Source: Nitrospirota bacterium
GTDB taxonomy: Bacteria; Nitrospirota; UBA9217
Length of the DNA: 64,000 nucleotides
Reading direction: 5' to 3'
NCBI GenBank assembly: GCA_035623825.1
Contig: DASPSR010000042.1
Location: 11,669-75,668 of the forward strand
Shown here: positions 23,321-46,340 of the stretch, one piece after another
How positions within the stretch are numbered: position 1 is the stretch's first letter
Layout of the letters: the number at the start of each line of letters is the position of its first letter
Position numbers and translations under genes: made by a program
The notes under the pieces: model-generated
The model's input: the letters and a program-made list of their open reading frames with translations, nothing else
Told to the model about the DNA's origin: nothing
The model's database searches: none

Positions 23321-23701
23321 TTATCCTTTGTTTCCCAATATCTGATTGACAATGTTCAGGAGGTCGGCGGTCTGAATGGGCTTTGGGATGTAGGCGTTGG
23401 CGCCTAAAGCGAGACCGCGCTTGCGGTCTTCCTCGGCGCCTTCGGTCGTAATGATGATGATCGGGATGGATTTGTGTGCGGGGTCGTTTCGAACCATTGA
23501 CACGAGCTTTAAGCCGTCCATGATTGGCATGTTGATATCTGTCAGGATGATGTCGAACTTCTGGGTCGAAAGTTTTTTGAGCGCGTCGATTCCATCATTG
23601 GCTTCAACGATTTTGCTCCCCGGAATACGCTTGAGCGCAAAGGAGATTAGCTGCCTCATCGTCGGGGAATCTTCAACCACCAGAAAATTATGCTCGGGCA
23701 T
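23321..23701 (-). CDS. Single-domain CheY-like response regulator
   Basis: 126-aa REC domain containing DINMPIMDG. Confidence 0.85.
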   Translation of the reverse strand: MPEHNFLVVEDSPTMRQLISFALKRIPGSKIVEANDGIDALKKLSTQKFDIILTDINMPIMDGLKLVSMVRNDPAHKSIPIIIITTEGAEEDRKRGLALGANAYIPKPIQTADLLNIVNQILGNKG

Positions 23702-23713
23702 TTCCTACCTCCG

Positions 23714-24535
23714 TTATTTTTCTTTGAGCAGATCAAGAAAGCTCTGGATCGTGGTAAGCTTGCGCTCGGACTGAGAATAGAGTTTCGAAGAAAAGAGCGC
23801 CGTGGCGGCGTGTCCAGCAAGCATAGAGAACAGCTCATAGTCAACGTTCGAAAACTCGCTTTTCTGGACGAGGAGTTTGTAGATCACAATAGCCCCGATC
23901 ACGTGTTCCTTGATCTTGAGGGGGATGCAGACCAAGGGGTGAGTGTAGTCCACTCCCTTGAGATCTGTTGGATCTCCGTTCCGATAGTATGCCTCACCGC
24001 CTTTGACTGACTGCCCGATGACCCCATCCCCCAATTTGATACTTGATCGCGCCTCTGGTCCCATGCCTTCCTGGGCCACGATCGACAGCTCATTCGTCTT
24101 TTCATCGACGAGCATGATCGAGAACTCTTCCGCGCCAATCAGGTTCATGACGATCTCGAGGATGATCTTGAGCGATTCGTTGAAATCCAAGGTGGAATGG
24201 AGCTGGTAGCTCGCCACATAGAGGTTCGCGAGGTTATTGTTCTCTGCCTCCACCTCGACATATCGGTTGGCAAAATCCTTGTTCTCTTCTTCTACCTGGT
24301 GGTAACGGTCGAGAAGATTCTTGTTCTCCTCCTCAAGGAACTTCACCCTTTCTTCGAGGCCATGAAATTTGAAGTTCTCTTCCCTGCCTGAGAACTTGGC
24401 GACTTCTTCGAGTTGCGCGACCTTGTACCTGAGCTTTTCGTTCTCCTTCAGCAGTTCCTGAGTGAACTCTTCGCCCTTCCTGAAGACCTGGAGAAACTCT
24501 TCAACTTTTTTCGTGATCCCTATTTCCTTTTCCAT
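23714..24535 (-). CDS. Coiled-coil plus GAF domain protein
   Basis: The N-terminus has heptad repeats rich in E/K/L. The C-terminal half is GAF-like. ATG at 24533-24535 with a GAGGAGGG Shine-Dalgarno. Confidence 0.6.
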   Translation of the reverse strand: MEKEIGITKKVEEFLQVFRKGEEFTQELLKENEKLRYKVAQLEEVAKFSGREENFKFHGLEERVKFLEEENKNLLDRYHQVEEENKDFANRYVEVEAENNNLANLYVASYQLHSTLDFNESLKIILEIVMNLIGAEEFSIMLVDEKTNELSIVAQEGMGPEARSSIKLGDGVIGQSVKGGEAYYRNGDPTDLKGVDYTHPLVCIPLKIKEHVIGAIVIYKLLVQKSEFSNVDYELFSMLAGHAATALFSSKLYSQSERKLTTIQSFLDLLKEK

Positions 24536-24729
24536 CAAACCCTCCTCGCATTTGCCGGGGTTACTGTCCCGCTCACACCGCATCTATCCGGAACGAAGAG
24601 AAAACTTCTCGTGCAACTGCATCCGTAGCTTGTTGCACCGACAGCGGAATAGGACAAGCCCTCATCTGCAAAAGAACCAGATAAGTTTTTTTATTATAGT
24701 CAAGTCCGCTGAAATTATCAAGGTCGATT

Positions 24730-25821
24730 TCACGATACAGAGCTCCCGCCGTCGCTTCTGCCCCAGCGGCATCGTTCGATTATTTCTTCCGCCATCCTGC
24801 TGAGCGGCAGTACCTTGTCCACAGCGCCGGTGCGGATTGCCTCCCGCGGCATGCCGAAAATGACCGCGCTTTCTTCGCTCTCGGCGAGGCACTGCCCTCT
24901 TTTACGTTTAATCGCATTAACTCCCTCGACGCCGTCTCTTCCCATCCCGGTAAGCACTACGCCGAGGGCAGCTGGGCCGCAGGCATCTGCGATGGAAACC
25001 ATCATGCGATCCGCAGACGGCACATACTTGTCCTCCGGGCTCCGGGCAACGAGCTCCGCAATGAACCCCGTGCGGTCTTTTTTTACAATCAGATGGTGGC
25101 CCCCGGGCGCTATGAGCACGGTTCCCGGACCGATGCGGTCGCCTGCTGAAGCCTCGCTCACCACAAGGGATGTCAGCTTGTTCAACCGCTCCGCGAAGCT
25201 CTTCGTAAAACCCGGAGGCATGTGCTGCGAAATCATAATGGCTGCGCCAAAGTCAGGTGGCAATGAGGTGAGAATTGCCTGAATCGCGGGCGGTCCTCCC
25301 GTAGACGACGCGATGGCCACCATTTCGATGGGGCTTCTCTCGACGCGCTCATCATCTTCTTTCCGCGCCGGAAAGGTAACTCGTTCCCGGGAAATGAGCG
25401 CGATCGTCGACTTGACCTTGTCCATCTCCAGGTTCAGGACGGCGTGAACCTTGGACACAAGCTCGTCCCGGATACTCTCGATACTCTTCGAGATCCGTGC
25501 CTCGGGCTTGGCAAGAAAATCCACAGCGCCAAGTTCCATGGCGCGGAAGACGCTGCGGCTGTCAGAGCGAGAGGAGAGCACGAGCACAGGCGTCGGGCAT
25601 TCCTTCATGAGCCACCGCAGGAAGGTAAACCCGTCCATGTTCGGCATTTCAAGATCAAGGGTAATCACGTCCGGCTGGAGCCGAAGCGTCTTCGCAATGG
25701 CATCCACTCCGTCATTTGCGCTCCCGATGACCTCAATCTCTTCATCGCTTGTGAGCATTCGGGTGATGACCGTTCGGTTGTATGCGGAATCGTCTACCAC
25801 CAGGGCCTTGATCTTGTCCAT
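24730..25821 (-). CDS. cheB: Chemotaxis response regulator protein-glutamate methylesterase
   Basis: REC domain followed by the CheB methylesterase domain (ASSTGGPPAIQ, GMGRDG). Confidence 0.9.
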   Translation of the reverse strand: MDKIKALVVDDSAYNRTVITRMLTSDEEIEVIGSANDGVDAIAKTLRLQPDVITLDLEMPNMDGFTFLRWLMKECPTPVLVLSSRSDSRSVFRAMELGAVDFLAKPEARISKSIESIRDELVSKVHAVLNLEMDKVKSTIALISRERVTFPARKEDDERVERSPIEMVAIASSTGGPPAIQAILTSLPPDFGAAIMISQHMPPGFTKSFAERLNKLTSLVVSEASAGDRIGPGTVLIAPGGHHLIVKKDRTGFIAELVARSPEDKYVPSADRMMVSIADACGPAALGVVLTGMGRDGVEGVNAIKRKRGQCLAESEESAVIFGMPREAIRTGAVDKVLPLSRMAEEIIERCRWGRSDGGSSVS

Positions 25822-25944
25822 TAAAGACTCTCCGTGATGAAGCTCGAATCATGAACGAACATCATATGAACGTCAAGTGCCGAGCACAAAGCTCCAAGCG
25901 TCCTGAAATGCGCGCCCTTGAGCTTGTGATTTATTGCAGATTCA

Positions 25945-26823
25945 CTATTTGAAACTTGGGATTCCAATTTTCGTCCTCACAGGCTTCTCGTACACCATAT
26001 CGTTCTTAAGCGTGCGCAGCGCAAAGGCGTTCGAGATATTAATCAGGGATTCCGAGTGCCCCAAGAGGAGATACCCGCCCTCACGGAGCTTTTCGTAAAA
26101 ACTCTCGATCACCTTTTTCTTCGCCTCCTTGTCGAAATAGATGATGACGTTCCGACAGAAGATGACATCCATGTTACTAATCAGGCTGGTTTTATGCGGG
26201 TCAAGAAGGTTCAGGTAGCTGAACGAAACGAGCTCGCGCACCCGGTCGGCGATGCGGTAATTCCCTTTTTCCTCTTCAATGAAGTATTTCGCCAGCATCT
26301 CCGGGCTTGTCACCCGGTGCGCGCTTTTTTTATAGACTCCCTTGCGTGCGGTATGTAGAACCCTCTGGTTGATGTCGCTTCCCAGGATCTCCACACGCCA
26401 GTCGCGCCACCAGTCCCCGGACTCGAACAGGAGGATAGCGATGGTATAAGGCTCCTCCCCGGTGGAGCATCCGGCGCTCCATATCCGAAGAACCTTGCGA
26501 TCAGCAAGTGTCTCACGTAAGTCGGGCAAGATTTCCTCGGAAAAGGCGCGGAGCTGCGGGCCCTCGCGGAAAAAATAGGTCTCATTCGTGGTGAGGTTGT
26601 CCACGAGAATGGCGAGTTCCTCTTCCCTCTTCCGGTCATAGCGGAGAAAATGGTAATACTCTTCGAAGCTCTTGAGCTGACGCTGCTCGAGCCGGCGCGT
26701 GAGCCTGCGCTCCAGCAGGAACTTGGAGCCGTCGTCAAAGTAAATGCCGCAGTATCCGTGGATGAACTCCCGGAGAAGCCTGAAGATGTCGTCAGGCAGC
26801 GGAATTGTCATTTCTTCTAGCAT
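25945..26823 (-). CDS. cheR: Chemotaxis protein methyltransferase
   Basis: CheR N-terminal helical domain plus SAM-binding methyltransferase (VLRIWSAGCSTGEEPYTIAILL). Confidence 0.9.
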   Translation of the reverse strand: MLEEMTIPLPDDIFRLLREFIHGYCGIYFDDGSKFLLERRLTRRLEQRQLKSFEEYYHFLRYDRKREEELAILVDNLTTNETYFFREGPQLRAFSEEILPDLRETLADRKVLRIWSAGCSTGEEPYTIAILLFESGDWWRDWRVEILGSDINQRVLHTARKGVYKKSAHRVTSPEMLAKYFIEEEKGNYRIADRVRELVSFSYLNLLDPHKTSLISNMDVIFCRNVIIYFDKEAKKKVIESFYEKLREGGYLLLGHSESLINISNAFALRTLKNDMVYEKPVRTKIGIPSFK

Positions 26824-28818
26824 TTATCTCCTCAACGCATCCTTCGCGGCCTGTCGAACGGCCGTATCCGGATCTCCGTCGGCAATTCGCTCCAGCACAG
26901 GTTCGGCCGATGTGTCCTTTTTCTGCTTAACGATCTCTATCGCTGCCTTTCTCACGCTCCAGTGAGGATCGGACAATCGAGAAAAGATGATTTGCCGGAC
27001 AGAGGCCCAATGATAACCGGAAAGAGCCACGAGCACCGTTTTGCGCACCTCAGGATCGGCGTGGCTAGCGAGCCTGAGGAGCGGATCCAGCGCGAGCTCC
27101 GTTCTAAGCTTTCCCACGACATCCACGAGGGCAAGAAGAAAAATGTCCGTCGCTGTATCCAGATGCACCGCAAGAACCTCTCCGGCCTTCTCGCCGCCGA
27201 ACCTTCCCAGACCGCGTGCGGCAGCTGCCCGCACCCAGAGGTCGTCGTCCTCAAGGAGCGGGATGAGGATATCGGGAACTTCGGGGGCACTTGTATTGCC
27301 GAGCGCATCAGCGGCCATCATCCTGACCTCAGGGTCGTCATCGGTAACGGCGTGTATCAATGAACGTAGGGCCTTATCTCCCGAAATGTTGCCGAGAGCA
27401 CGGACAACGGCCTTTCTTACATCTGGCTCCTCGTCCTTGAGCGCAAAGGCAAGAGCATCGGCTGCCTTGTCGGTCGTGAATCTGCCGAGCAGGAGCGCGA
27501 TGTTCCTGCGCATGGGTGCGTCCCGAGACGTAAAGTCCTTTACAAGGTCATCGAGGGCGGACTCGTCGCCGATCTCCGCCAGTGCTCGTATTGCCGATTC
27601 CTGAACGCTCGGATATTCGTCTGTGAGCACATCAAGGAGTGGTTTGACGGCTTTCCGGCTCCTCAAGCGCCCGAGCGCCTCCGCTGCCGCGCTACGCACA
27701 TGACCGTTCTCGTCCATCAGTAGACCGATAAGGGGATCTTCAATATCCCGGCCCCCGGCGTCGCCGAGCACCCTCGCCACCGTCCTTCTCACGAGCGCAT
27801 TATCGTCGGAGAGATAACCCAGCAGAAAAGGCACACGGTCTCCGTCTATGTTCCTAAGCGCTTGTGCTATCGGTTCTTCCATGTCCTCATCTTTCAGAAG
27901 TGCAAGCAGTTTTTTGATGGAGGTCTCCCTCCCGGCCCACCCGAGCACCGCGACGGCCGACTTCTGGAGCTCTCCTGTGCTCGTGATGAGCATCTCTTCC
28001 AGAAGGTCTACTGCCCGGTCGTTCATGTTGGCACGAATAGTCCTTATCATGCGTTCCCGATCATCATGCGTGCTCTTTCGGTATATCGCAGTCAGTGCTA
28101 CCATAGCGACCTCGCGCACGATTCTAAGCGTATCGGCAAGGCCCGCGATGAGCGGCATAAGCGTATTGACATTACCAATCTTGCCGATTGATTCGATTAC
28201 CGGCTCTCTCAGGCTGCCCCGGCAGAGAGCTGCTATGAGCGGTCCGAGGGCTCGGTCGTCACCGATTTCTCCCAGAGCCTCGGCAGCGGCATAGTTAAGC
28301 CAGCTCTGGTGGTCTCGAGTCAGACAGGCAAGCAGCGGTTCGACTGCGCGGCGGTCCTTTATCTTGCCAAGCGCTTCGGCTGATGCCACACAGATATTAT
28401 CATCGGGGTCCTTTGCCAGTACCCCGATCAGGGCGGGTACGGCCCTTGAATCCCTGATATCTCCGAGGATGTCGACAATAAATTTGCGAACATCTGCATC
28501 CGGCGTTTCAAGGGATATAAGCAGGGCATCGACAGCTGGGGTGCCGATCTTGACCAGAGCTTCAATCGCCGAGTTCCGCGAACCGGCGTTGTCATCGGCG
28601 GAGAGGGACCGGATGAGCCCCTCGATGACATCATTGCTGCCGATTGCCACTAGTGCCTCGACTGCCGTCTTCCGGACTCGCCAGTCAGTATCACCCATGG
28701 CACTGAAGAGCAGGGGCACGGCATTCCGGCCTACGCGGCTAAGATCGACAGCCGCCTCCCGTCGCTCCTCCGCATCGCTATCCTGCAGTTTCTTCCTTAA
28801 AAATTCAAGATTCGGCAT
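26824..28818 (-). CDS. HEAT-repeat (PBS-lyase HEAT-like) protein, 664 aa
   Basis: Roughly 20 tandem ~30-aa repeats of the form VRxxAxxALGxIGdxxAvxxLixxL. Its stop abuts the cheR start, and its start overlaps cheW by 14 nt. Confidence 0.8.
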   Translation of the reverse strand: MPNLEFLRKKLQDSDAEERREAAVDLSRVGRNAVPLLFSAMGDTDWRVRKTAVEALVAIGSNDVIEGLIRSLSADDNAGSRNSAIEALVKIGTPAVDALLISLETPDADVRKFIVDILGDIRDSRAVPALIGVLAKDPDDNICVASAEALGKIKDRRAVEPLLACLTRDHQSWLNYAAAEALGEIGDDRALGPLIAALCRGSLREPVIESIGKIGNVNTLMPLIAGLADTLRIVREVAMVALTAIYRKSTHDDRERMIRTIRANMNDRAVDLLEEMLITSTGELQKSAVAVLGWAGRETSIKKLLALLKDEDMEEPIAQALRNIDGDRVPFLLGYLSDDNALVRRTVARVLGDAGGRDIEDPLIGLLMDENGHVRSAAAEALGRLRSRKAVKPLLDVLTDEYPSVQESAIRALAEIGDESALDDLVKDFTSRDAPMRRNIALLLGRFTTDKAADALAFALKDEEPDVRKAVVRALGNISGDKALRSLIHAVTDDDPEVRMMAADALGNTSAPEVPDILIPLLEDDDLWVRAAAARGLGRFGGEKAGEVLAVHLDTATDIFLLALVDVVGKLRTELALDPLLRLASHADPEVRKTVLVALSGYHWASVRQIIFSRLSDPHWSVRKAAIEIVKQKKDTSAEPVLERIADGDPDTAVRQAAKDALRR

Positions 28819-29332
28819 TGCCCGCCTCCGCCAGCGCTGAGCGCTCCTGCTGGCTTAAGATCTTGGTTATGTCAAGAAGAATTATAAGCCCGTCGGCCAC
28901 TTTCCCCATGCCGGTGATGAAATCGCCGCTCGCTCCCGTGGCCACTTCCGGCGCAGGTTCGATATCTTTTTTTGGAACATGGAGCACTTCGTTCACACCA
29001 TCCACGACCAGACCGATCAGACCTCTCCCGGTGCCATTAGCACCTTGGAGGGCGCCCCGCATGATCATCATGCGCATCTTCCGTGGATTGTCGTGAATCG
29101 TTGCCAGTGCAAAGCGCTTGCGCAAGTCAATGATAGGGATGATGGCTCCGCGCAAATTGATCACACCTTCTATAAACTTCGGCATCCGCGGAAGTGGTGT
29201 GATTCTGTGCGGGCGAACGATCTCGGTGATCGAATTGATCTCCAGCCCGTACACCTCCGGCCCTATGTGGAATGTAACGAGTTGAAGGGTTTCATCCGCA
29301 ACAACCGCCTGTTTTGCTTTCTTGTCGTTCAT
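28805..29332 (-). CDS. cheW: Chemotaxis coupling protein CheW
   Basis: 175-aa CheW domain (LVTFHIGPEVYGLEINSITEIV...INLRGAIIPIIDLR). Confidence 0.9.
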   Translation of the reverse strand: MNDKKAKQAVVADETLQLVTFHIGPEVYGLEINSITEIVRPHRITPLPRMPKFIEGVINLRGAIIPIIDLRKRFALATIHDNPRKMRMMIMRGALQGANGTGRGLIGLVVDGVNEVLHVPKKDIEPAPEVATGASGDFITGMGKVADGLIILLDITKILSQQERSALAEAGNAES

Positions 29333-29416: not shown

Positions 29417-31504
29417 TTACATCCTGAATTTCTGGATCTCATTCTTGAGCGAACCAGCCTGGTCGGCCATAATTTCCACGGCACTGTTGAGCCCAGCAGC
29501 CTGACTTGCATTTTCCTTGGCTATTTGCTTGATGCGCTCGATTGCCTTTACGATCATATTGCTGCCGGTCTGCACCTCACCTGTCGCTCTGTTCACCAGA
29601 GTGATCTTTGCGCTCATGTTCTCGACCGCCGCCGTGATGTCTTTCCCGGCCTTTGCCTGCCCTTCTGTTGATGTTCTGACAAATCGCGTGATCTCGCTCA
29701 TTTTCTCGGATGCCCGCGCAATCTGCTCACTGGCCGATTTCTGCTCATTAGCGGCCTTGGCGATCTGGAGGGTCATCCCGCTGATCCGTTCGACGGCTTC
29801 GCTTACCTGCCTGATGCTCCGCACTTGTTCTGCAGCCGCGCGGTTGATGCTCCTGCTCATGTCACGAGACTGGTCCGCCCGTTCCAGGATCTTTCGAAGT
29901 GTCTGACCCGCATCCTTGGAAAGCCGCATTCCCTCTTCCACGATAGCGACCCCTTCCTGCATGACTCCGGCGGCTACTTTGGATTCTTCCTGCACAGAAG
30001 CAATGAGATTGCCGATTTCCTGTGTTGATGCGGCCGTACGGTTCGATAGGTCGCGTATTTCCGCAGCCACCACCGAAAAACCCTTGCCGTGCTCTCCCGC
30101 CTGTGCCGCGAGGATCGCGGCATTCAGGGCAAGAAGGCCTGTCTGATCCGTAATATCCTCAATGACAGTAAGAATGCTCCCGATACTCTCGACGCGACCG
30201 ACGAGACGGTTCACCACATCGGCGGTCCGCCGCGCTGCTGCATCGATTCTGCCCATGCCCTCGATGGTCTTGTCGATAGAGTGCATGCCAAGTTGCTGGG
30301 CATCAGAGGCAACCGCCTCCGAAAGAGCAAGAGACTGTCTTGCGGTCTCCTCGACCTCTTTTACCGATGTGCTAATCTCGGACGATGACGCCGCTGTATC
30401 CGCTGCAGCAGCTGAAAGCAACTCGACGTTTCCAGCGATCTGCCGGATCGCGACGGACATCTGGGCTATAGCCGAAGTTGTTTCCTCGATAGATGCCGAA
30501 AGTTCGTGCATAGTCCGTGCCACCTCGTCCACAGAGGCGACCGTTTCGATCACGGATGAGGAGGTCTGCGTCGACGTTGCAAACAGGTCTTGAGCGGTTC
30601 CTGCGATTTCCTTGAGGGCAAAATGCATCTCGTTTACAGATGATGCCGCCTCGTCGACGGACTCGGCCTGCGTGCGGCTCCCGGTTGCTATCCGGGCGGA
30701 AGCTCCCTTGACTTCGGTTGAGACCGACTCCACATTCATCGCTGCCTGCTGTACATTTCCGATCATGCCCTTGAGTCCGGTGATCATGCGATTTAGTCCC
30801 CTCCCGAGCATCCCGAATTCGTCATGGGATGCGATGCGTACGCTCTGCGTGAGGTCTCCGGCGGCGATGTTCGATGCCACGGACACCGCTTCCTTCGTCG
30901 GCACAACGATCATCTTCCGCGCCATCATATAGACCATCGCAGCCAACGCGAGCACGATCGCAACGCTCGTTCCGAGCAGCAGGAATACTATTCCTCGGAC
31001 GTTCTGCTTCGCCCCAGTCCTCGAGAACCCCATCCAGACCGTGCCTAGCTTGGTTTCTCCGGTCTTGATGTCGACCGGGATTTCAAGGACATCGAACTGC
31101 GCCTTCACCTTGGCTGCAAGTGCGGGCGCGCTGTCCGATGTGTTCTGCAAGAGGAATTCATGCAGTTCGGGATTCTCCCGGTTGAAACTGGTTACGACAT
31201 TGTTCAAGACCGCGTCCGACGAATCCGTAACATAGGTGTAAAGCATATCCTGAGTTTTGACCGCATCGGCAACAAGGCTTTCAAGCTTTTTCATGTCTTT
31301 CTGGAGAATTGGGTCCGTTACTGCCTTGCCGAGGAACATTCCCAGATCCTTCCCGTGCGTCTCGATATGCCGGTACTGATCGGCTGACATGGTCCGGGCT
31401 ACAAAGGCCGTGCCCAGAACCATAAGCGCAAGAATAACACCGGTGATTACGACGGCGAGCTTTAAGCCCATGCTTGCCTCGATCTTTTCCTTCAGATCCA
31501 GCAT
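29417..31504 (-). CDS. Methyl-accepting chemotaxis protein with a periplasmic sensor domain, HAMP, and a long methyl-accepting signalling domain
   Basis: TM1, a periplasmic region of about 140 aa, TM2, HAMP, then the MA domain (LLALNAAILAAQAGEHGKGFSVVAAEIR). Confidence 0.9.
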   Translation of the reverse strand: MLDLKEKIEASMGLKLAVVITGVILALMVLGTAFVARTMSADQYRHIETHGKDLGMFLGKAVTDPILQKDMKKLESLVADAVKTQDMLYTYVTDSSDAVLNNVVTSFNRENPELHEFLLQNTSDSAPALAAKVKAQFDVLEIPVDIKTGETKLGTVWMGFSRTGAKQNVRGIVFLLLGTSVAIVLALAAMVYMMARKMIVVPTKEAVSVASNIAAGDLTQSVRIASHDEFGMLGRGLNRMITGLKGMIGNVQQAAMNVESVSTEVKGASARIATGSRTQAESVDEAASSVNEMHFALKEIAGTAQDLFATSTQTSSSVIETVASVDEVARTMHELSASIEETTSAIAQMSVAIRQIAGNVELLSAAAADTAASSSEISTSVKEVEETARQSLALSEAVASDAQQLGMHSIDKTIEGMGRIDAAARRTADVVNRLVGRVESIGSILTVIEDITDQTGLLALNAAILAAQAGEHGKGFSVVAAEIRDLSNRTAASTQEIGNLIASVQEESKVAAGVMQEGVAIVEEGMRLSKDAGQTLRKILERADQSRDMSRSINRAAAEQVRSIRQVSEAVERISGMTLQIAKAANEQKSASEQIARASEKMSEITRFVRTSTEGQAKAGKDITAAVENMSAKITLVNRATGEVQTGSNMIVKAIERIKQIAKENASQAAGLNSAVEIMADQAGSLKNEIQKFRM

Positions 31505-37187: not shown

Positions 37188-37200
37188 TTATGAGCCTCCT

Positions 37201-38252: not shown

Positions 38253-40187
38253 TTAGGGCCGTTCTGCCTCGCTTCCGAATCCACCCGGGTATGCGCCATT
38301 CCAGAGCGGCCCGTTTGGAAGAAGATATGCCTTGGCTCCCTGGCACCAGGCGGGCGGTGTGCCGCCGCTGCACGCGGTGCTGAGAGTCGCACCGACCGAA
38401 TAGTTCATTATCCCGTCATCGAGCCAGTCGAGAGAGTCGTAGATCAATCTTTTCGCAAACCTGCTGTTATGCACATAGGCGCCCCATTCATGAGTGAGGA
38501 GGCTGAAGTTAAACGCGGCACCCAGATTGTTTTTGCCGGTCGTGTTGCCCGTTATATCCGCATCACCGGCGGAAAGCCAGTTTTTGTTGGCGAAATACGG
38601 ATAATTGGTGGTGAATGTATAACCGGATATAATGAGCTCTGCTTGGAGTGCCTGCAAGGCAGAATCGAAGTTGTTCTTTTCGTCCTGCACTACCGTACCA
38701 AAATCTATGCTGGAACCGGCATGGCAGGCAAAACAAACCGCGCTCGATACAACGATGTTCCCCATATTCGTACTGATTGGCTCAAAGAGATGGTTGCCAC
38801 TCATGCCCGTCCGGTCCATATGGCATCCGACGCAAGGGCCGTTCGAGCCGGTGTTCGGGGCATTTGGCGTGCCGATCTGATTGTGCTTGAACGAAGCGGG
38901 GTCAGCATAGTTCCTCCCGGCATATACGTACGGCGTGCCCTTGAACATCGTTCCGCCTGCGGAGAGGTAGTGTCCGTCAGGGAAACTGAAATTGCTGAAA
39001 TTCACGGTTGCTGTCTGTCCGGTATTCAAATCGCTGACCGCCGTGCCGTTTACGCGCCCCGTGTGGCAGGGAATACAGACATTCGAGATGGATAGATCAG
39101 GGTACTGGAAATATGCTGTAGAGCTCGGGGCGGAGCCGATCGTATACGTTGCCTTATAGGCTCCCGGATTCCTGAGGTCACCCGCATTGTCTGTGTGACA
39201 GCCTCTGCACTCGAGCATTTCGGGCTTGAAGTTCAAAGCAGAGGGTACAAGCGCTATGCCGCCGGCTACAATGGTTGCGGCCAATGATTGGTTTCCCGCC
39301 TGAAGCGCATCGGCATACGTCGCAAAACCGGTTGTCGTATGACAGCGCTGACAGGCGGTCCTGCTCGCCAGCGACCAGTCGTAATGAGCCCAGGCATCTG
39401 CCGCAAGCATATCCGCATGCTTCGAACTGGCCCAATCTCTGTTGATGTCGGCATTCTTATGCGGATTGTGGCAGTCGGTACAGACGGTATCGCTCGCAAA
39501 ATTCATGGCATAACCGGTAATATTATTGCTATTTTGACTAGTTCCTGACGCCCCCCAGTTGCCGGGGGTGGCAAAGTGCGTGTCAGTGATAACGTATTGA
39601 GTTCCATTGGGGGCAGGTGCCCCTGCTAAATGGGTCGGCGAAGCATTAAGAGCTCCTGTTGAGGTATCGAGCAGATTATGACAAGCCGTGCACATGACGA
39701 ATTGTCCAGAGACCGCTACGGCGCCGAAGCTTGTCCCCGTCGTGTTCGAAAGGAGGGATATCGGCCCGGCCCCGCCGGCATCTGCATGCAGGCTCCCGGG
39801 ACCGTGGCAAGCCTCGCAGCCGACCACCGGACGAGGAACATTCCCCGTGTATCCTGCTGTGAGATTGTTGCTGTCCCCGTCAGGGTCATGACAACTGATG
39901 CAGCCTGAGCCGCCTGCCTGGACAAGACCCACTGTCGGAACGCCTGCACTGTACAGGTTACCTGCAGGATCGAGATTCCCGTGTTTGCTCATAAGCCAGT
40001 CGGCTGTTTCGGTGGTATGACATCCTGCGCACCTATTCAGTCCTGCAGTCGTAGTCGCTGCAGAAAGAACGCTTGAAGTCGCCGGCCCGATAGCCGAATC
40101 GGACTTGCCGCAACCTCCGAGCATGGCGATACATGCAAGCATGAAAAGAAAAACGAGGACTGTTCTGCTTCCCTTCTTTGTATTCAT
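38253..40187 (-). CDS. Outer-membrane lipoprotein decahaem c-type cytochrome (functional analogue of MtrC/OmcA)
   Basis: Lipobox MLGGCGKS. Ten CxxCH motifs (CAGCH, CISCH, CEACH, CTACH, CTDCH, CQRCH, CRGCH, CIPCH, CVGCH, CFACH). 644 aa. Confidence 0.8.
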   Translation of the reverse strand: MNTKKGSRTVLVFLFMLACIAMLGGCGKSDSAIGPATSSVLSAATTTAGLNRCAGCHTTETADWLMSKHGNLDPAGNLYSAGVPTVGLVQAGGSGCISCHDPDGDSNNLTAGYTGNVPRPVVGCEACHGPGSLHADAGGAGPISLLSNTTGTSFGAVAVSGQFVMCTACHNLLDTSTGALNASPTHLAGAPAPNGTQYVITDTHFATPGNWGASGTSQNSNNITGYAMNFASDTVCTDCHNPHKNADINRDWASSKHADMLAADAWAHYDWSLASRTACQRCHTTTGFATYADALQAGNQSLAATIVAGGIALVPSALNFKPEMLECRGCHTDNAGDLRNPGAYKATYTIGSAPSSTAYFQYPDLSISNVCIPCHTGRVNGTAVSDLNTGQTATVNFSNFSFPDGHYLSAGGTMFKGTPYVYAGRNYADPASFKHNQIGTPNAPNTGSNGPCVGCHMDRTGMSGNHLFEPISTNMGNIVVSSAVCFACHAGSSIDFGTVVQDEKNNFDSALQALQAELIISGYTFTTNYPYFANKNWLSAGDADITGNTTGKNNLGAAFNFSLLTHEWGAYVHNSRFAKRLIYDSLDWLDDGIMNYSVGATLSTACSGGTPPAWCQGAKAYLLPNGPLWNGAYPGGFGSEAERP

Positions 40188-40292: not shown

Positions 40293-40955
40293 CTACGCCC
40301 CTACCGCTTTGTGCAAGTCCAGCAGGATGTAGAGCCTGTCGTCTTTTCGCGCTATCCCCTTTAGGAACTCTGCACCTTGTTCGATGGTCTCCGGTGCAGG
40401 ACGGACGGCGTCCGGTGAGATCCGTACCACCCCGGTCACCTGATCCACGAGAATTCCCGCGTTCTCGTCATCTGGGCTTATAATGATAATCCGCGCCTTC
40501 TCGTCCCTCACGGCGGGCGGAAGGCCTAGCCGCCTTCCGAGATCCAGTACTGGCAGGACCGTTCCCCGGATCGATGTCACCCCGATGACATGTGACGGTG
40601 AATTGGGGACCATGGTGAGCTCCCTGCTTTTCAGCACTTCCTGTACATCATCTACGGGCAGGACATACTCTTCACTGCCGAGGCGGAACGAGAGCATCTC
40701 GATCTCCTGTGTGTGAATTCCACTTGCCACTCCTTCTTCAGGCTCCGGCGTGTCCCTTCTTCCGATTTCTTCCACTGCGGCGTGTTTGGCCGCTTCCGGT
40801 TGTTTCCCGACAGCTGGAGATGACGGCACAGGGCTCGCGCTGCCAGAGGGCTTTTCCGTCTGGGCAGGTTGAGCAGGGGCCGTTTCTTCGGTCTCGAGTT
40901 TGTTTTGTGTGCGTGTCCACTCCGCTGCCTTTTTCCGCGCTGCCAAGATATCCAT
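40293..40955 (-). CDS. CheW-like protein with a ~90-aa low-complexity, Pro/Ala/Glu-rich N-terminal extension
   Basis: C-terminal CheW domain (LSFRLGSEEYVLPVDDVQEVLK...SIRGTVLPVLDLGRRLG). Confidence 0.8.
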   Translation of the reverse strand: MDILAARKKAAEWTRTQNKLETEETAPAQPAQTEKPSGSASPVPSSPAVGKQPEAAKHAAVEEIGRRDTPEPEEGVASGIHTQEIEMLSFRLGSEEYVLPVDDVQEVLKSRELTMVPNSPSHVIGVTSIRGTVLPVLDLGRRLGLPPAVRDEKARIIIISPDDENAGILVDQVTGVVRISPDAVRPAPETIEQGAEFLKGIARKDDRLYILLDLHKAVGA

Positions 40956-40984
40956 AGGTCGCTAACGCTCCTACCGAAAAAAAC

Positions 40985-41866
40985 TTACAGAGAGCAGAGG
41001 ACATGGGACATATGGGAAACCATGGCCCCTCTTCTCTTTGCCTCATGCCGAATGCCCTTTCCGTCCTTCGCCCGCCCTTCTCTCACTATGCTCTCGATGA
41101 TCTCCTGGTCTATTATCTTGAGGCCCTTGCCGAAACCTTCAACGAGCGCATTGCCCGCAATGGTGTTGATAATGCGCGGAACGCCTCCTGAACGCTCGAA
41201 CAAAGCCGTGTTCGCTTCTTCATCAAAGAGCAGCGTTTCCCTCCCCGCTACCCGGAGCCGGTGCTTCACGTACTCTCGTGTCTCGTCCTCGTCAAGCGGG
41301 CCCAGGTGATACTGCATTCCGATCCTCTGCCGAAGCGCCCTGTACTGGCGTCGGTCGAGCCGCTCCCCGAGCTCTGTCTGGCCGATAAGCAGGATCGCGA
41401 GAAGGTTGCGGTCATCGAGCTGGAAATTCGTAAGCAACCGCAGTTCCTCGAACGTGGCCTTGCCGGAGATAAGCTGCGCTTCGTCAATGATGACCACCGG
41501 TCGCTTCCCGGCCTCGAAGAACTCATACAGCTTTGCATTGATTCCCTCAATGATGCTGTGGCAATCCCGGCTCGAGCACTCCATCTCGAGGCCGAGGGCC
41601 ACGGTTCTCAGAAGATGTAGCGGCGAAAGCCGCGGGTTGATTATCAGCATCGGATGAAAGCTCCCGTCCAGCGAATCGATGAGCGCACGGGAAATCATCG
41701 TCTTGCCCGTACCGATATCGCCGGTCAACAGGGCAATGTCCTGGTCCTCTGCCGCAAGCTGTAGCCGGGCGAGGGCCTCGGCATGCTTGGCGCTCTGGTA
41801 GAAAAAACGCGGGTCAGGCGTCTTTTTGAACGGCTTTTCGCTCAGTCCGTAAAATTCTTCATACAT
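40985..41866 (-). CDS. ExeA/GspA/MshM-like AAA ATPase (AAA_22)
   Basis: Walker A GDIGTGKT and Walker B VVIIDEAQ. The N-terminus YGLSEKPFKKTPDPRFFYQS is typical of the ExeA family. Confidence 0.7.
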   Translation of the reverse strand: MYEEFYGLSEKPFKKTPDPRFFYQSAKHAEALARLQLAAEDQDIALLTGDIGTGKTMISRALIDSLDGSFHPMLIINPRLSPLHLLRTVALGLEMECSSRDCHSIIEGINAKLYEFFEAGKRPVVIIDEAQLISGKATFEELRLLTNFQLDDRNLLAILLIGQTELGERLDRRQYRALRQRIGMQYHLGPLDEDETREYVKHRLRVAGRETLLFDEEANTALFERSGGVPRIINTIAGNALVEGFGKGLKIIDQEIIESIVREGRAKDGKGIRHEAKRRGAMVSHMSHVLCSL

Positions 41867-41998: not shown

Positions 41999-44008
41999 CT
42001 ACTGTCTGCTGACAACGACCGATCTTTTGAGAGCCCCTTCGATGAGTGATTCAACATCCAGCACGAGCACAACGCCGCGTCTGTCTCCCAGCTCCGTGGC
42101 GCCAGCAATGCCCGGTATCTCCGATATCCGCTTTCCAAGAGGCTTGATGACGATCTCCTGCTGGTCCCGGAGACCGTCAACCATGATCCCCAAGCGGCGC
42201 TCTGCGAGACCCACGAGGATGAGGTAGAATGAGTTGCTGCTGGGCTTCGGGGTCAGTTTGAACGCCTTCGTAAGCCGATAGAGCGGTATCGTGTCGCCAC
42301 GGATGGCCATCACCTCGCGTGTCTCCACGGTCTCTACCTGGTCATGCGTCGCCTGAATGATCTCGAGCACGGCGCTGAGAGGCACGGCAAACACCTCTCC
42401 GCCGGCCTCCACTACGAGTGCCTTGATGATGGCAAGGGTTATGGGAAGCGTGATGATGAATTTCGTTCCCATACCCGTCTCGGTATCGATATCAATCATA
42501 CCGGACAGCTTGGAGACATTCCGTTTCACCACGTCCAAACCCACACCACGGCCCGAGATTTCGGTTACGGTCTCGCGGGTGGTGAAGCCGGGAAGGAAAA
42601 TGATATCCAGAATCTCTTTGCGGTCGGTCTCAGGATCAAGGCCATGGTCCGAGGGGAGAACCGCTTTCTGCACTGCCTTGGCCAGGATATTCTTCGTTTC
42701 TATCCCCGCTCCGTCGTCTTCGACGGTGATCACCACATGGTTGCCCTTGGGGAATGCCGCGAGCTTTACCACACCGTGTTCCGGCTTTCCCTGCTGTTTC
42801 CGTATTTCGGGGAGTTCGATGCCGTGGTCAATGGCATTCCTTATGAGGTGCATGAGCGGGTCGGCAAGGTCCTCGATCATAAGCTTGTCGAGTTCGGTCT
42901 CTTCTCCCGAAAGATGGAGATCGATCTCCTTTCCCACTTCTTTCGCGTACTTTCTGACCATCTGTGAAAGGCGCGTAAAAATCTGGCCGATTGGAACCAT
43001 TCTAACCTCAAGGATCCCCTCCTGGAGGTCGTTCAGCTTCCTCTCCAGGCTGCGCTGCGCCTTGTGCAGATCCACGGAAAGTCCTGCGAATCCGTGCATG
43101 GATCTCAACTCACGCGCGATGCGACCGATGATGTTCTTGGTGAGGTGCATCTCACCGACTACGTTCATAAGGCCGTCAAGCTTGTAGATATCCACGCGGA
43201 CAGTATTGCTCACCGACTTGATCGCACCCGTTTCCGATACCGCCCGTTGCTCTTCCACCTTCCGCCCCTCGACGTACGTTATCGGGTCGAAGGACACCTT
43301 TGGCATATTGATCGCCGACATGAGCTCGTCACGTCCCATTGCGGTGCCGGCCACAATGGTAAATCCGATGCCGCCTGCGGCCGCGCCGGCCGTGGGCAGG
43401 GTGCAGATAATTTCAGCGTTCTTTTTGAGCACATCATTGAGGTTCTTGATGCCTTTTTCGAAATCGGTAAGCTCGAACAACGCCTTAATGGTGAAAAGGT
43501 TTTTGTGCTCCCTGATATTTTCCTTGAGTCGGTATTCTTCGTATTCCGTAAGGACTTGGAGGAGCCCGCGGTCAATTTCTATCTGATCCAGGATAGACCG
43601 GTCAGCGGCTGTGGAAGGCTTGGCTTTGAGGATTCCGTCGATGCGGTCAAGCGCGGCCGCTATGTCTTCCGGCTGCTCCTTGTTGCCCACTTGCTGCACA
43701 TGCCGTCCGAGCAGGGCCACGGTCTCGAATAGCACATCGAGGACGTCCCGGCTGAGCGCTGTTTTCCCGAGACGGACCTCGTCGAGGAGGAACTCCAGTT
43801 TGTGTGAGAGCTCTGAGGGGGCCTTGAGCCCGAACATCCCGGCGAGTCCCTTGAAGGAATGGATTGCGCGAAAAAGGCCGTTCACCAGATCCGGAGCCGA
43901 GCGCCCTGCGGCCTGTTCGGACTCAAGCGAGAGCATCGTCTGGTTGGCCGTTTCGAGAATGTCTTCCGCCTCGGCTAGAAAATCCTTTATAGAACGGTCT
44001 GATTTCAA
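41999..44008 (-). CDS. cheA: Chemotaxis histidine kinase CheA
   Basis: Hpt domain (HSFKG), dimerisation domain, HATPase_c (GRGVGLDVV) and a C-terminal CheW-like domain. 669 aa. Confidence 0.9.
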   Translation of the reverse strand: MKSDRSIKDFLAEAEDILETANQTMLSLESEQAAGRSAPDLVNGLFRAIHSFKGLAGMFGLKAPSELSHKLEFLLDEVRLGKTALSRDVLDVLFETVALLGRHVQQVGNKEQPEDIAAALDRIDGILKAKPSTAADRSILDQIEIDRGLLQVLTEYEEYRLKENIREHKNLFTIKALFELTDFEKGIKNLNDVLKKNAEIICTLPTAGAAAGGIGFTIVAGTAMGRDELMSAINMPKVSFDPITYVEGRKVEEQRAVSETGAIKSVSNTVRVDIYKLDGLMNVVGEMHLTKNIIGRIARELRSMHGFAGLSVDLHKAQRSLERKLNDLQEGILEVRMVPIGQIFTRLSQMVRKYAKEVGKEIDLHLSGEETELDKLMIEDLADPLMHLIRNAIDHGIELPEIRKQQGKPEHGVVKLAAFPKGNHVVITVEDDGAGIETKNILAKAVQKAVLPSDHGLDPETDRKEILDIIFLPGFTTRETVTEISGRGVGLDVVKRNVSKLSGMIDIDTETGMGTKFIITLPITLAIIKALVVEAGGEVFAVPLSAVLEIIQATHDQVETVETREVMAIRGDTIPLYRLTKAFKLTPKPSSNSFYLILVGLAERRLGIMVDGLRDQQEIVIKPLGKRISEIPGIAGATELGDRRGVVLVLDVESLIEGALKRSVVVSRQ

Positions 44009-44099
44009 TCGTCGCTACGCTCCATTGAAAAATGTAAAAAGAATATTAATATTTTGATTTCTGATCTTTACTATATAACCCGGCACGCAACGCCGCCGT

Positions 44100-44471
44100 C
44101 TATTCACCCTCCAACGCCTTGTTCACTGCAGCCATTAGATCTTCCTTCTTGAAAGGTTTAACTACATATCCGGTAGCCCCGAGCGCTATGCCCCTTTTTT
44201 GGTCTTCCTCGCTCTTTTCGGTGCTCACGATGATTAGGGGAATGTCCTTATAAGCGGCATTCGACTTTACAAAGCTGATCAACTCAAGGCCGTTGATGTC
44301 GGGCATATTGATGTCAGTGATTATCAGGTTGAAGCGTCGTGTGGGAAGGGTTTTGAGGGCTTCAAAGCCGTTCCCGGCTTCCACCGCAAAGAACTCTCCC
44401 ATTTCCTCGAGAGAGACCCGCATCATCGAGCGTATGGCCTTGGAATCCTCCACGATAAGGACGTTCTTCAT
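44100..44471 (-). CDS. cheY: Chemotaxis response regulator CheY
   Basis: 123-aa REC domain with DINMPDING and KPF. Confidence 0.9.
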   Translation of the reverse strand: MKNVLIVEDSKAIRSMMRVSLEEMGEFFAVEAGNGFEALKTLPTRRFNLIITDINMPDINGLELISFVKSNAAYKDIPLIIVSTEKSEEDQKRGIALGATGYVVKPFKKEDLMAAVNKALEGE

Positions 44472-44599
44472 TTTCGCTCCTTCTGAAGGTCGGCAGGTCT
44501 CTTTTCCAGCAGGCCCTTTTCCAAGACCATCCCCGCCTGATTGATGAATATCTCGAGAGTATCCACGCCTTTGATCGGTTTCTGATCGGGCAAGTTGTC
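44290..44599. repeat. Copy 1 of a ~310-bp diverged direct repeat (~93% identity) covering the cheY 5' end plus a DUF4388-gene 3'-end remnant
   Basis: Aligned by eye to 45016-45326. There are about 20 substitutions plus a 1-bp indel. The remnant still reads in frame as ...FINQAGMVLEKGLLEKRPADLQKERK-stop, overlapping the cheY ATG. Confidence 0.8.
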
Positions 44600-45015
44600 T
44601 CCCTATGCGTTATCAACGCCCAAGATTCTCTTCATTTTGTTCCAAGCGCTATTACTGTTTTTTTATCGCATCCTTATGAATCCATCCTATGCTCGACTTG
44701 CAATATTTATACTAAATTTATATTTTAAAATATGTCAATAAATCAATTTGTTACAGCGCGTGAAACGCTTTCCCCAGTGTTGGAAAATACTACACTGATG
44801 GAATCTTAACGGACAAAATTTGACAGAGCAGTCTTGGCTCTTTAAAAATCTCGGGGCGCTTTTCGAGAGAACAGCGGCTCCCGGTTGAGCTTGGCTAAAC
44901 TGGGTTCAGATATTTCTTGGAAGAGCAGGGAAACAGCTTCGTATTCAATCGCGATCACTTGGTGACGGTGTACGTCGTATGCGACGGAACAGGCGTTACA
45001 AAGCTGATTGGAAAA

Positions 45016-45194
45016 AGCCGTTGATGTCGGGCATATTGATGTCAGTGATGATCAGGTTGAAGCGGTTTGCGGGAAGAGTTTTGAGGGCTTCAAAGCCGTT
45101 CCCGGCTTCCACCGCAAAGAACTCTCCCGTTTCCTCGAGAGAGACCCGCATCATCGAGCGTATGGCCTCGAATCCTCCACGATAAAGACGTTCT
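45016..45194 (-). pseudogene. cheY N-terminal fragment, about 60 codons, frameshifted and truncated
   Basis: It begins MKNVFIVEDS... with the same ATGA overlap to the DUF4388 gene as the intact pair. A 1-bp deletion relative to intact cheY sits at about 45160. Sequence then diverges into the AT-rich spacer. Confidence 0.7.
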
Positions 45195-45326
45195 TCATTT
45201 TCGCTCCTTCTGGAGGTCGGCAAGTCTCTTTTCCAGCAGGGCCTTTTCCAGGGCCATCCCTGCCTGGTTCATGAATATCTCGAGAGTATCCACGCCTTTG
45301 ATCGGTTTCTGATTAGGCAAGTTGTC
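45016..45326. repeat. Copy 2 of the direct repeat, covering the true 3' end of the DUF4388-GAF gene plus a truncated, frameshifted cheY 5' fragment
   Basis: As copy 1. The two copies are separated by 416 bp of ORF-free, AT-rich sequence (44600-45015). Confidence 0.8.
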
Positions 45327-46340
45327 ACCATATACAACCAGCGCTATCTTTCCGTCCACAATCAGCGGTATTGCGAGTACCATATCGGGCTTGACCCCGC
45401 CGAGCTCATTGACGAGGTAGTTGTTGCTCTCATTCGATGCAAGCTGACCGAGAAAACTTCGTCGGTTTTCGATCACCGTAAGGAACAGCGACGGTTGATT
45501 GAGCGGGATTTTGATATTGCGGACGACCTGGTCGGCGGACATGTTCTTGAGGTCTATCCCGAACTGGCCGAGACCTCGAACCTCGTCCTTCTTCACCATG
45601 AACAAGATAGCACGGTTGACAACCTCGCTCGCATACCGCAGGATGAGGAGCGTCACCTCTGCCGTTGCTGTGGGGAACCTTAGTTCGTCGAACATGGACT
45701 TGAGCACAGTGATCTCTCTGCGCGGTACTTCTGTCTCTATGCGGGTGAGGAACTCTTCTTTGGCCGGTTCGTAGCTGACGCGGTGAGTGGCCGGAGCTTT
45801 TGATGACGGGGCGGCTGTCTTGTGCATGCCTTTCCGCTTCTCATCGAGGATCCGCGTTCCCTCCATGAGGAGATACTCGGCACTGATGCCGGACTTGAGC
45901 AGGAACTCCTGGGTGTCTATCTCGAAATTGTCCTTTGAGGCTATATCTCCGAGCTCGAAGTTGAAAAAGCCCTCTTCCCACGCAAGCAGATCATAGATGA
46001 TCTCCTCAATCTGTTTACGGACGACGGTCTCGAGCGTTTGTGCGGGCACGACCCCCATCTCCACGAGGATCATGCCGAGTGGCTTGTCGACTTTCTCCTT
46101 TTGCAGCGCCAGCGCCTGGGACAGCGCCGTTTCGGTCAGCATTCCCTGCGAGACAAGGATATTTCCAAGGGAATCGCGGATACTGTCACTAGCGGCCTGA
46201 ATTACCTGGCCGCCCTTGAATACGACCATCCCTGTTCCCTTGCGGCTACGCACAAGGAGGGTGCCGGTTTTCTTACTCAGACTAATGATCTGGAAGATAT
46301 CGGGTAAAGCAAGATCTTCCAGCCTGCCAACAAGGCTCAT
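45195..46340 (-). CDS. DUF4388 (PATAN-like) N-terminal domain protein with a C-terminal GAF-like domain
   Basis: N-terminal LEDLALPDIFQIISLSKKTGTLLV matches the DUF4388 signature. 381 aa. Confidence 0.6.
   Translation of the reverse strand: MSLVGRLEDLALPDIFQIISLSKKTGTLLVRSRKGTGMVVFKGGQVIQAASDSIRDSLGNILVSQGMLTETALSQALALQKEKVDKPLGMILVEMGVVPAQTLETVVRKQIEEIIYDLLAWEEGFFNFELGDIASKDNFEIDTQEFLLKSGISAEYLLMEGTRILDEKRKGMHKTAAPSSKAPATHRVSYEPAKEEFLTRIETEVPRREITVLKSMFDELRFPTATAEVTLLILRYASEVVNRAILFMVKKDEVRGLGQFGIDLKNMSADQVVRNIKIPLNQPSLFLTVIENRRSFLGQLASNESNNYLVNELGGVKPDMVLAIPLIVDGKIALVVYGDNLPNQKPIKGVDTLEIFMNQAGMALEKALLEKRLADLQKERK

Follow-up and report, generated by a model that had tools for sequence, protein, structure and literature searches.

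Within a stretch of 64,000 nucleotides from a Nitrospirota bacterium (contig DASPSR010000042.1; this whole stretch is called the window below), 18 co-oriented genes on the minus strand (46340..23321) place a predicted porin-cytochrome conduit inside a set of Che chemosensory genes. Judging from the genes present, we read the cluster as a non-flagellar Che pathway with a trans-outer-membrane redox-sensing input, and give this reading a probability of about one half. Two comparative results carry it. The conduit genes are followed almost without exception by genes for a solute-binding protein (SBP) and a membrane sensor, and the site that they occupy among the che genes is a variable one, filled differently in related clusters.

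The 18 genes were taken from the list of open reading frames (ORFs), and their domains were assigned with Pfam and NCBIfam (Table 1). The Che core is complete by Pfam (CheA, CheW, CheR, CheB, CheY and methyl-accepting chemotaxis proteins, MCPs), and Pfam scans of the 64-kb window found no CheZ, CheC, CheX or CheD and no flagellar or pilus genes. An earlier note on this DNA had described this gene content, its layout on a single strand and the same absences, and our domain searches agree with it on all 18 genes.

Conduit proteins

The conduit is encoded by three genes in the order surface cytochrome, periplasmic decahaem cytochrome, outer-membrane barrel (C-A-B), with gaps of 26 bp and 13 bp and good ribosome-binding sites. 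Apart from the two cytochromes, the 64 kb contain no multihaem ORF. The periplasmic one aligns with MtrA of the Shewanella complex (6R2Q_A; E 1.2e-42, residues 53-332) and scores 251 bits with TIGR03508, the DmsE family, above the cut-off of 192; with NF041028, the GSU2203 family, it reaches 245 bits, below the cut-off of 325. Its ten haem sites were counted correctly in the earlier note, but one of them is CX3CH (CLKACH) rather than CXXCH, and this site aligns with haem site 1 of MtrA; the other nine are CXXCH.

The barrel was modelled with AlphaFold (AF2) using 72 homologues (pLDDT 82); the model shows 26 long strands, and its top Foldseek match by far is MtrB (6R2Q_B; E 2e-19, TM-score 0.68), all other matches having a TM-score of at most 0.45. 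The protein passes PF11854 (27.7 bits, cut-off 23) and falls below the cut-offs of TIGR03509 (31 bits against 240) and NF041027, the GSU2204 family (120 bits against 350). A sequence-profile search of the PDB gave no match for it, so that the likeness to MtrB rests on the fold comparison. It contains no CXXCH. By sequence, the barrel represents a distant MtrB subfamily.

The ten haem sites of the surface cytochrome are invariant among its homologues. The C-terminal half resembles the NrfA/OcwA fold, and the protein is similar to OcwA and OmhA, surface cytochromes of Gram-positive bacteria; its predicted structure does not show the MtrC/OmcA fold. On sequence and model evidence, two of the three conduit proteins (the MtrA-like cytochrome and the barrel) are genuinely Mtr-type, and the surface cytochrome is a functional analogue of MtrC by position, lipidation and haem count only. 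The earlier description of an MtrCAB-like conduit is thereby borne out for the MtrA homologue and the MtrB fold but not for the surface component. The same note had considered that none of the three might prove to be of the MtrCAB/Pio type, and the MtrA alignment, the TIGR03508 score and the fold of the barrel speak against this. No gene resembling CymA, NapC or ImcH, that is, for an inner-membrane quinol dehydrogenase, and none for a periplasmic shuttle was found in the cluster or elsewhere in the 64 kb.

Linkage of the conduit to membrane sensors

In order to see how the conduit is distributed, the porin alignment was scanned against one genome per species, which gave 70 loci, mostly from Nitrospirota metagenome-assembled genomes (MAGs) plus Desulfobulbales. 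The loci were classed by tblastn with all 18 window proteins, and three classes were obtained. The first comprises 25 Nitrospirota species genomes that keep the full order PatA_N-CheY-CheA-ATPase-CheW-cytochrome-MtrA-barrel-SBP-MCP(s)-CheW-HEAT-CheR-CheB, and a further five short contigs are consistent with it. The order, which the earlier note proposed to check for being peculiar to one strain, is therefore a conserved one. The surface cytochrome is encoded in 23 of the 25; in the remaining two (L018 and L023), the MtrA-like gene comes directly after cheW1. The surface cytochrome is the most variable part of the conduit and a dispensable one. Its length elsewhere ranges from about 480 to 900 aa.

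Within this class, the median identity to the window proteins is 76% for the MtrA-like cytochrome, 71% for the SBP, 70% for MCP1 and 70% for CheA, against 49% (minimum 32%) for the barrel and 47% for the surface cytochrome. The lower values fit a faster evolution of the exposed parts. The DUF520/YajQ housekeeping neighbours are also syntenic within the clade that has the full cluster. One locus (L007, JBLMWN010000142.1) comes from a MAG labelled Betaproteobacteria and holds a Nitrospirota-type cluster with 50-80% protein identity; the label is probably a binning or labelling error and not a sign of lateral transfer.

The second class consists of about 11 other Nitrospirota/Thermodesulfovibrionia loci in which the unit is limited to (cytochrome)-MtrA-barrel-SBP-MCP and has housekeeping neighbours such as HflX, HemE and HrcA/DnaK. 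Upstream of these units lie, in one case, a hybrid kinase with a Tll0287-like domain (PF11845), which we take to bind haem c, and in another a GAF-GAF-GGDEF diguanylate cyclase; these two loci are L028 (6189-8855) and L040 (4684-6714), and in both the signalling gene lies directly upstream. The third class, about 15 loci of Desulfobulbales type, has the order MtrA-barrel-SBP-second SBP (PF12974)-HAMP histidine kinase.

For 51 loci in total, 4.5 kb or more of sequence is available past the barrel gene. In 50 of these 51, an SBP of the PF04392 family immediately follows the porin, and a membrane sensor is encoded within 4.5 kb in 49 of 51 (an MCP in 34 cases, a HAMP kinase in 15). The first two classes share an orthologous MCP1 sensor domain, with 28-38% identity in the second and 22% in one divergent member, which by sequence means that it has been inherited together with the conduit. 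In the kinases of the third class, the periplasmic domain is helical and carries C89-x-x-C92-H93-H94, invariant throughout and a putative c-type (covalent) haem attachment site. For example, in the kinase at L043 (13687-15162) and at 13 similar loci, the periplasmic domain also carries an invariant Met. Pfam returned no match for this sensor domain and a sequence search of the PDB gave matches at chance level only; it probably represents a haem-c sensor domain not yet described. What stays constant in this MtrAB subfamily is thus the link to a sensor, whereas the output domain differs, as would be expected of an input module.

A receptor slot in the Che scaffold

The Che genes around the conduit were followed through the ExeA-like ATPase, which was searched against 1.8 billion representatives, and the genomic contexts of its nearest stand-alone relatives were examined. 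In one of these (L080, whose cluster members are named Deltaproteobacteria/BMS3Abin14), the order is PatA_N-CheY-CheA-ATPase-CheW-[Zn-ribbon receiver]-HEAT-CheR-CheB-GAF-CheY-LeuS, and this scaffold contains neither an MCP nor a cytochrome. The scaffold of L082 is similar and also lacks a conduit. A Thermodesulfovibrionales-type locus (L081) shares the common scaffold and has a different receptor cassette between its two cheW genes; this cassette (7906-13595) encodes an MCP with Mcp40H-20_sensor and Phosphonate-bd domains, a PBP_like_2 SBP and a second MCP.

Every scaffold protein of the window has a positional homologue in L080, L081 or L082 at 29-71% identity, and the order is collinear. PatA_N and HEAT homologues are found in L080 and L081, the position of the ATPase is kept in all three, and in L080 and L082 the homologues of the GAF protein are 43-50% and those of CheY2 66-71% identical. 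By sequence comparison, an ATPase gene between cheA and cheW is a hallmark of this Che scaffold. Since the scaffold occurs without a conduit in two loci and with another cassette in a third, the site between cheW1 and cheW2 is a variable receptor slot, and it behaves as an exchangeable receptor site. In the clade of the window, it is filled by what the sequences identify as a unit of the second class (cytochrome-MtrA-barrel-SBP-MCP). The resemblance to chemosensory pathways with alternative functions, seen earlier in the gene composition, is strengthened by the collinearity with mcp-less clusters and by the cheY-cheA-ATPase-cheW order, which is also the one annotated in the literature for the Geobacter β-group/Esn cluster.

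In the ten ATPase clusters nearest to the window protein, those members that carry names are Deltaproteobacteria, Thermodesulfovibrionales and Desantisbacteria MAGs, with no Geobacter among them. A close stand-alone relative of Desantisbacteria type (L083, 10001-10795) lies in a polysaccharide export/Wzz/Wzy cluster and not among che genes, which agrees with the sub-threshold match of the window protein to TIGR03015, a PEP-CTERM-associated ATPase family. This family of ATPases appears to work in envelope and exopolysaccharide systems.

Binding protein and receptors

The SBP gene begins 7 bp past the porin gene and shares 4 nt with the MCP1 gene, and no ABC permease or ATPase genes stand beside it in the cluster. 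This is the layout of a binding-protein-dependent sensor, in which the SBP gene is coupled to a sensor gene and a cognate transporter is absent. Relatives in the PDB are 3LKV, 3LFT and 6HNI. About 36 positions are near-invariant across 49 sequences, which suggests a putative conserved pocket. PF04392 proteins in solved or curated cases are binders of ordinary solutes (e.g. Trp), and a literature search on PF04392 in signalling gave nothing useful.

The window MCPs have signalling domains of about 32+32 heptads and belong to the 64H or "40+24H" class. MCP1 has neither a Cys nor a haem motif, and no haem motif was found in the MCPs of the 70 loci.

Gene layout and traces of recombination

Table 1. 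Genes and other features of the cluster, listed in the direction of transcription (positions are those of the window)
Feature	Position	Strand	Evidence
PatA_N (DUF4388/PATAN) protein with weak GAF-like C-terminus	45195..46340	-	PF14332 112.6 bits; GAF_2 21 bits, below cut-off
Duplication/insertion scar, 723-bp gap	44472..45194	-	Frameshifted cheY fragment, insert and repeated end of gene 1
CheY1, single-domain response regulator	44100..44471	-	Response_reg 95 bits; 72-89% identity across the clade
CheA histidine kinase (Hpt, dimerisation, HATPase and CheW-like domains)	41999..44008	-	Pfam/NCBIfam
Stand-alone ExeA-like AAA_22 ATPase, between cheA and cheW	40985..41866	-	PF13401 74.9 bits; TIGR03015 227 bits, below cut-off of 324
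CheW1 with ~85-residue low-complexity N-terminal extension	40293..40955	-	CheW 130 bits, residues 86-217
Ten-haem outer-membrane lipoprotein cytochrome, 644 aa, ten CXXCH	38253..40187	-	C-terminal half with NrfA/OcwA-like fold
Periplasmic decahaem cytochrome, MtrA/DmsE family, 341 aa	37201..38226	-	6R2Q_A, TIGR03508
Outer-membrane β-barrel, MtrB fold, 26 strands, 652 aa	35229..37187	-	AF2 model and Foldseek
Periplasmic SBP, PF04392	34292..35221	-	PF04392 130 bits
MCP1: two transmembrane segments, ~135-aa periplasmic sCache_3_2-like domain, HAMP, 64-heptad signalling domain	32202..34295	-	Pfam
Remnant of a third MCP, 197-aa ORF, first ~171 aa	31504..32097	-	Comparison with relatives
MCP2: two transmembrane segments, periplasmic domain, HAMP, 64-heptad signalling domain	29417..31504	-	Pfam
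CheW2	28805..29332	-	CheW 123.5 bits
HEAT-repeat protein, CpcE/NblB-like, 664 aa	26824..28818	-	HEAT_2 366 bits; NblB/CpcE-family matches below cut-off
CheR methyltransferase	25945..26823	-	Pfam
CheB methylesterase with receiver domain	24730..25821	-	Pfam
Coiled-coil and GAF protein	23714..24583	-	GAF_3 52.9 bits
CheY2, terminal single-domain response regulator	23321..23701	-	Response_reg 99.8 bits

The intergenic distances are -14 to +146 bp with a single exception, and at four junctions the genes touch or overlap (SBP/MCP1 -4, truncated MCP/MCP2 -1, CheW2/HEAT -14, HEAT/CheR 0). The tiny gaps reported earlier are thus real for these junctions but not for the one between gene 1 and cheY, which measures 723 bp. 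We infer that the cluster is co-transcribed. There is no enrichment in the cluster of sites of sigma-70 type (14 against 10±3 in shuffled sequences) or of sites resembling terminators (19 against 16.6±4.8), and matches to the sigma-54 consensus are rarer there than by chance, with none in intergenic sequence; these counts are uninformative on co-transcription.

The 723-bp gap is a scar. A direct duplication of ~320 bp (44286-44606 and 45014-45333, 92-95% identical) lies on both sides of an insert of ~407 bp, the scar contains a frameshifted fragment of cheY, and the final 41 codons of gene 1 are repeated directly ahead of the intact cheY. The gene 1 stop and the cheY start share an ATGA in each copy, so the ancestral junction was tight. 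In the relative L011, tblastn likewise shows a second cheY-like match. The insert is of lower GC; of all sigma-70-like sites in the region, the best (TTGACA-18-TAGTAT; 44738..44709, minus strand) lies within it.

A second trace concerns the "membrane protein" that the earlier note saw coupled to the second MCP. This 197-aa ORF is a truncated MCP: it corresponds to the N-terminal ~171 residues of a third receptor whose length in relatives is 700-950 aa. L056 and L011 both have a 943-aa MCP at this place, and against them the window lacks ~2.3 kb, with the break near 31583-31610. The number of MCPs in the slot varies between two and three within the clade. Three assemblies that were deposited separately (ENA ERZ27251257, JGI 3300018058 and ENA ERZ27251285) all show the scar, the truncated MCP and the entire gene order, which makes an assembly artefact unlikely; an identical surface cytochrome was found on ten contigs.

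The cluster is flanked by housekeeping genes, FtsK, LolA and DUF520 upstream and RlmN downstream on the other strand, and the remainder of the 64 kb holds Wood-Ljungdahl and other housekeeping genes. The Wood-Ljungdahl/C1 set (531-19453) comprises CdhC and CdhD-type subunits of ACS/CODH, a pterin-binding methyltransferase, MTHFR with its C-terminal partner, an HdrA/MvhD-like flavoprotein, NuoE/F-like proteins and a formate dehydrogenase; by its gene content, it points to an anaerobic host metabolism of acetogenic type or running the reverse acetyl-CoA route. The molybdopterin subunit of formate-dehydrogenase type (531-3203, minus strand) is split into two ORFs by an in-frame TGA (2163-2165; motif DHCARL-TGA-HSATVAG), very likely a selenocysteine codon and not a stop. 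At the window edge (62565-63810), a LuxR-type response regulator adjoins a short HATPase_c ORF, and this pair appears unrelated to the cluster.

Proposed mechanism and alternatives

In the reading that we favour, a wire of roughly 20 haems would bring its periplasmic end into equilibrium with the redox state outside the cell, set by Fe/Mn minerals, humics, electrodes or other cells. The SBP and the Cache domain of MCP1 would read this redox state, either directly on MtrA or through a ligand that depends on it; in Desulfobulbales, the haem-c kinase would do so. CheA, CheW, CheR and CheB would turn the reading into an adapting signal, and phosphorylated CheY (CheY~P) may act on the HEAT, GAF and PatA_N proteins, and through them on surface behaviour, matrix or electron-transfer physiology, not on flagellar rotation. 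The HEAT-repeat protein is a candidate target of CheY, and the PatA_N protein would bind cyclic di-GMP (c-di-GMP). Residues 58-110 of the latter form an MshE-type c-di-GMP-binding motif (NF053729, 46.6 bits, cut-off 38), which hints at c-di-GMP in the output or gating of the pathway, as in the Geobacter Esn network, where EsnD is a diguanylate cyclase.

A wider proposal is more tentative: the whole MtrAB-type subfamily could be an "electroreceptor" rather than primarily a respiratory outlet, read out by SBP and Cache-MCP in Nitrospirota and by the haem-c kinase in Desulfobulbales. One Nitrospirota clade would then have built the electroreceptor module into the receptor slot of an Esn-like Che pathway.

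Several points weigh against a sensing role. The function is deduced from genes, and all representatives are MAGs of uncultured organisms. A sensor beside the conduit would also be expected if it controlled a respiratory conduit or were merely co-expressed with one. The lack of Cys and haem in MCP1 means that loci of the window's class could read the redox state only by an indirect route; the SBP, coming from a family of ordinary solute binders, could report a plain nutrient; and we know of no mechanism for coupling an SBP to MtrA. Moreover, the orthology of the scaffold to the Geobacter Esn cluster rests on published annotation only, and with the housekeeping neighbours syntenic as well, part of the conservation may be simple vertical inheritance.

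Other explanations were weighed. The conduit might be respiratory, serving Fe(III)/Mn(IV) reduction or Fe(II)/electrode oxidation and co-expressed with a Che pathway for colonisation or energy taxis, its SBP-MCP pair sensing an unrelated solute or its MCPs following the energy state indirectly. We consider this the strongest of the alternatives, though rather unlikely. In its favour, the homology or fold of MtrA and MtrB equals that of respiratory complexes, the SBP family binds ordinary solutes, and the surface cytochrome resembles OcwA and OmhA, which act as terminal reductases. The closest curated families, those of GSU2203 and GSU2204, are induced with iron oxides, and the congregation of Shewanella depends on the respiratory Mtr complex itself (PMC5789149). 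Such a conduit leaves unexplained why a sensor accompanies it in 49 of 51 loci, an MCP in some and a haem kinase in others, and why stand-alone units hold an MCP but no other respiratory gene; that the 64 kb encode no inner-membrane quinol dehydrogenase or periplasmic shuttle also counts against it. That the Che pathway instead regulates the conduit, with CheY~P, HEAT, GAF and the ExeA-like ATPase controlling its assembly, localisation or gating and the MCPs sensing ordinary cues, appears improbable. The ATPase gene does adjoin the conduit genes, in analogy to ExeA aiding secretin assembly; the Geobacter β cluster is reported from preliminary data to regulate the extracellular matrix (PMC2577667); and Che outputs other than motility are known, such as Che7 with Cpc7 (cited in PMC11514114). 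The conduit, however, travels with the SBP and the sensor and not with the output genes, and the ATPase, HEAT and GAF proteins are present in the scaffolds without a conduit (L080, L082), hence not specific to it, which weakens this explanation.

Lastly, the linkage might mean nothing, the conduit having arrived by mobility or recombination at an intergenic site that tolerates insertions and then been passed on vertically in one clade. We disfavour this strongly. The duplication scar and the deletion do show a recombinationally active locus and the flanking housekeeping genes are syntenic too, but the order is kept despite divergence of porin and surface cytochrome to about 32-50% identity, the junctions are tight or overlapping, and the linkage of conduit, SBP and sensor recurs in two phyla with different sensors. 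As between sensing and regulating, the comparative data favour sensing, because conduit and SBP stay together as the output domain changes and 49 of 51 loci have a sensor. The congregation of Shewanella and the growth of Geobacter on electrodes are published precedents of the same logic.

Significance

We found no prior description of a porin-cytochrome inside a che operon, nor of an MtrAB subfamily systematically linked to sensors, in a full-text search that covered Mtr phylogeny, porin-cytochromes and the che systems of Geobacter and Desulfuromonas with partial journal coverage. The remark in the earlier note that such an arrangement was not known to be described holds within this scope.

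The question addressed is how bacteria detect insoluble electron acceptors, donors and electrodes. In Shewanella and Geobacter, genetics ties outer-membrane cytochromes and Che-like proteins to such detection, but the genes are scattered. In the window, conduit, SBP, receptors and kinase are gathered in one conserved, putative operon, and other lineages have a simpler four-gene version. This is a defined and portable set of parts for asking whether a haem wire can act as a sensory antenna, with predicted contacts of MtrA with the SBP and of the SBP with the Cache domain, and it would be a natural design for bio-electronic sensing. If a sensing role were proven, these proteins would form a new functional class of porin-cytochromes. 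For surveys of metagenomes (FeGenie-type), it is a caution that MtrAB matches need not mean iron respiration.

Comparison with known systems

The nearest structural counterpart of the conduit is Shewanella MtrCAB (6R2Q), with which the window shares the order of surface cytochrome, periplasmic decahaem and barrel, the MtrA homologue and the 26-strand MtrB-like barrel. It differs in that its barrel scores far below TIGR03509, its surface cytochrome is NrfA/OcwA-like and no CymA-type partner is nearby; the window conduit also lies inside a Che operon and is followed by SBP and sensor. The PCC (porin-cytochrome) complexes of Manganitrophaceae, which are also Nitrospirota, were considered and rejected as a counterpart, being dodecahaem and having no che link.

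The closest curated families are those of GSU2203 (OmcK) for the decahaem cytochrome and of GSU2204, described as an MtrB/PioB-family barrel, for the barrel. Both window scores are below the cut-offs, and the window barrel lacks the CXXCH/selenocysteine feature of the GSU2204 family. In Geobacter, these two genes lie near the che cluster but are separated from it by rpsT, holA, lptE and leuS (GSU2206-2209) (PMC5585712 supplement), and with these housekeeping genes intervening we rejected them as part of that che operon.

As for the read-out, binding-protein-dependent receptors are exemplified by MBP-Tar, LuxP-LuxQ and TorT-TorS. The window resembles them in having an SBP gene translationally coupled to a membrane sensor without transporter genes. 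Periplasmic haem-c sensor domains are reported from MCPs and kinases of Geobacter and Anaeromyxobacter; the Desulfobulbales variant is similar in carrying CXXCH in its sensor domain, whereas MCP1 has no haem motif. In both groups, no known case is linked to an outer-membrane porin-cytochrome.

For the output, a parallel is Myxococcus xanthus Che7, whose single-domain CheY7 acts on Cpc7, a CpcE/NblB-like HEAT protein encoded in the cluster (cited in PMC11514114). The window likewise has a HEAT-repeat protein in a Che cluster, a likeness by description and not by sequence; Che7 differs in lacking a conduit, an SBP and an ExeA-like ATPase.

The scaffold itself has its parallel in che cluster 5 of Geobacter sulfurreducens, which runs GSU2223 cheY, GSU2222 cheA/esnC, GSU2221 ATPase, GSU2220 cheW/esnB, GSU2219 cheY, GSU2218 cheW ... 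GSU2212 cheY (PMC5585712) and is an mcp-less "β group" conserved in δ-proteobacteria (PMC2577667). The gene order equals that of the window scaffold, by published annotation rather than sequence comparison, and the LeuS downstream in L080 parallels leuS GSU2209. The receptor family also agrees, being 40H/40+24H for the Geobacter cluster and 64H for the window MCPs. In contrast to the window, no mcp, cytochrome or porin genes are inside the Geobacter cluster, and its receptor EsnA is a cytoplasmic MCP unlinked to it. This "electrode sensing network" (Esn) requires EsnB, EsnC and the ATPase GSU2221 when cells grow on electrodes, but growth on Fe(III) oxide does not depend on them (PMC5585712); the cluster is further linked to matrix and biofilm.

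Similar in logic is the congregation of Shewanella on insoluble acceptors, for which MtrBC/OmcA, CymA, a Cache MCP and CheA-3 are required, none of them linked to another (PMC5789149). Its output is flagellar and its sensing is thought to be indirect, via the energy state, whereas the window has no flagellar genes in its 64 kb and has a dedicated SBP. Outer-membrane cytochromes with MtrB, a Cache MCP and CheA are common to both, and in the window they lie together in what we take to be one operon. Both building blocks are of known kinds; the wiring is new.

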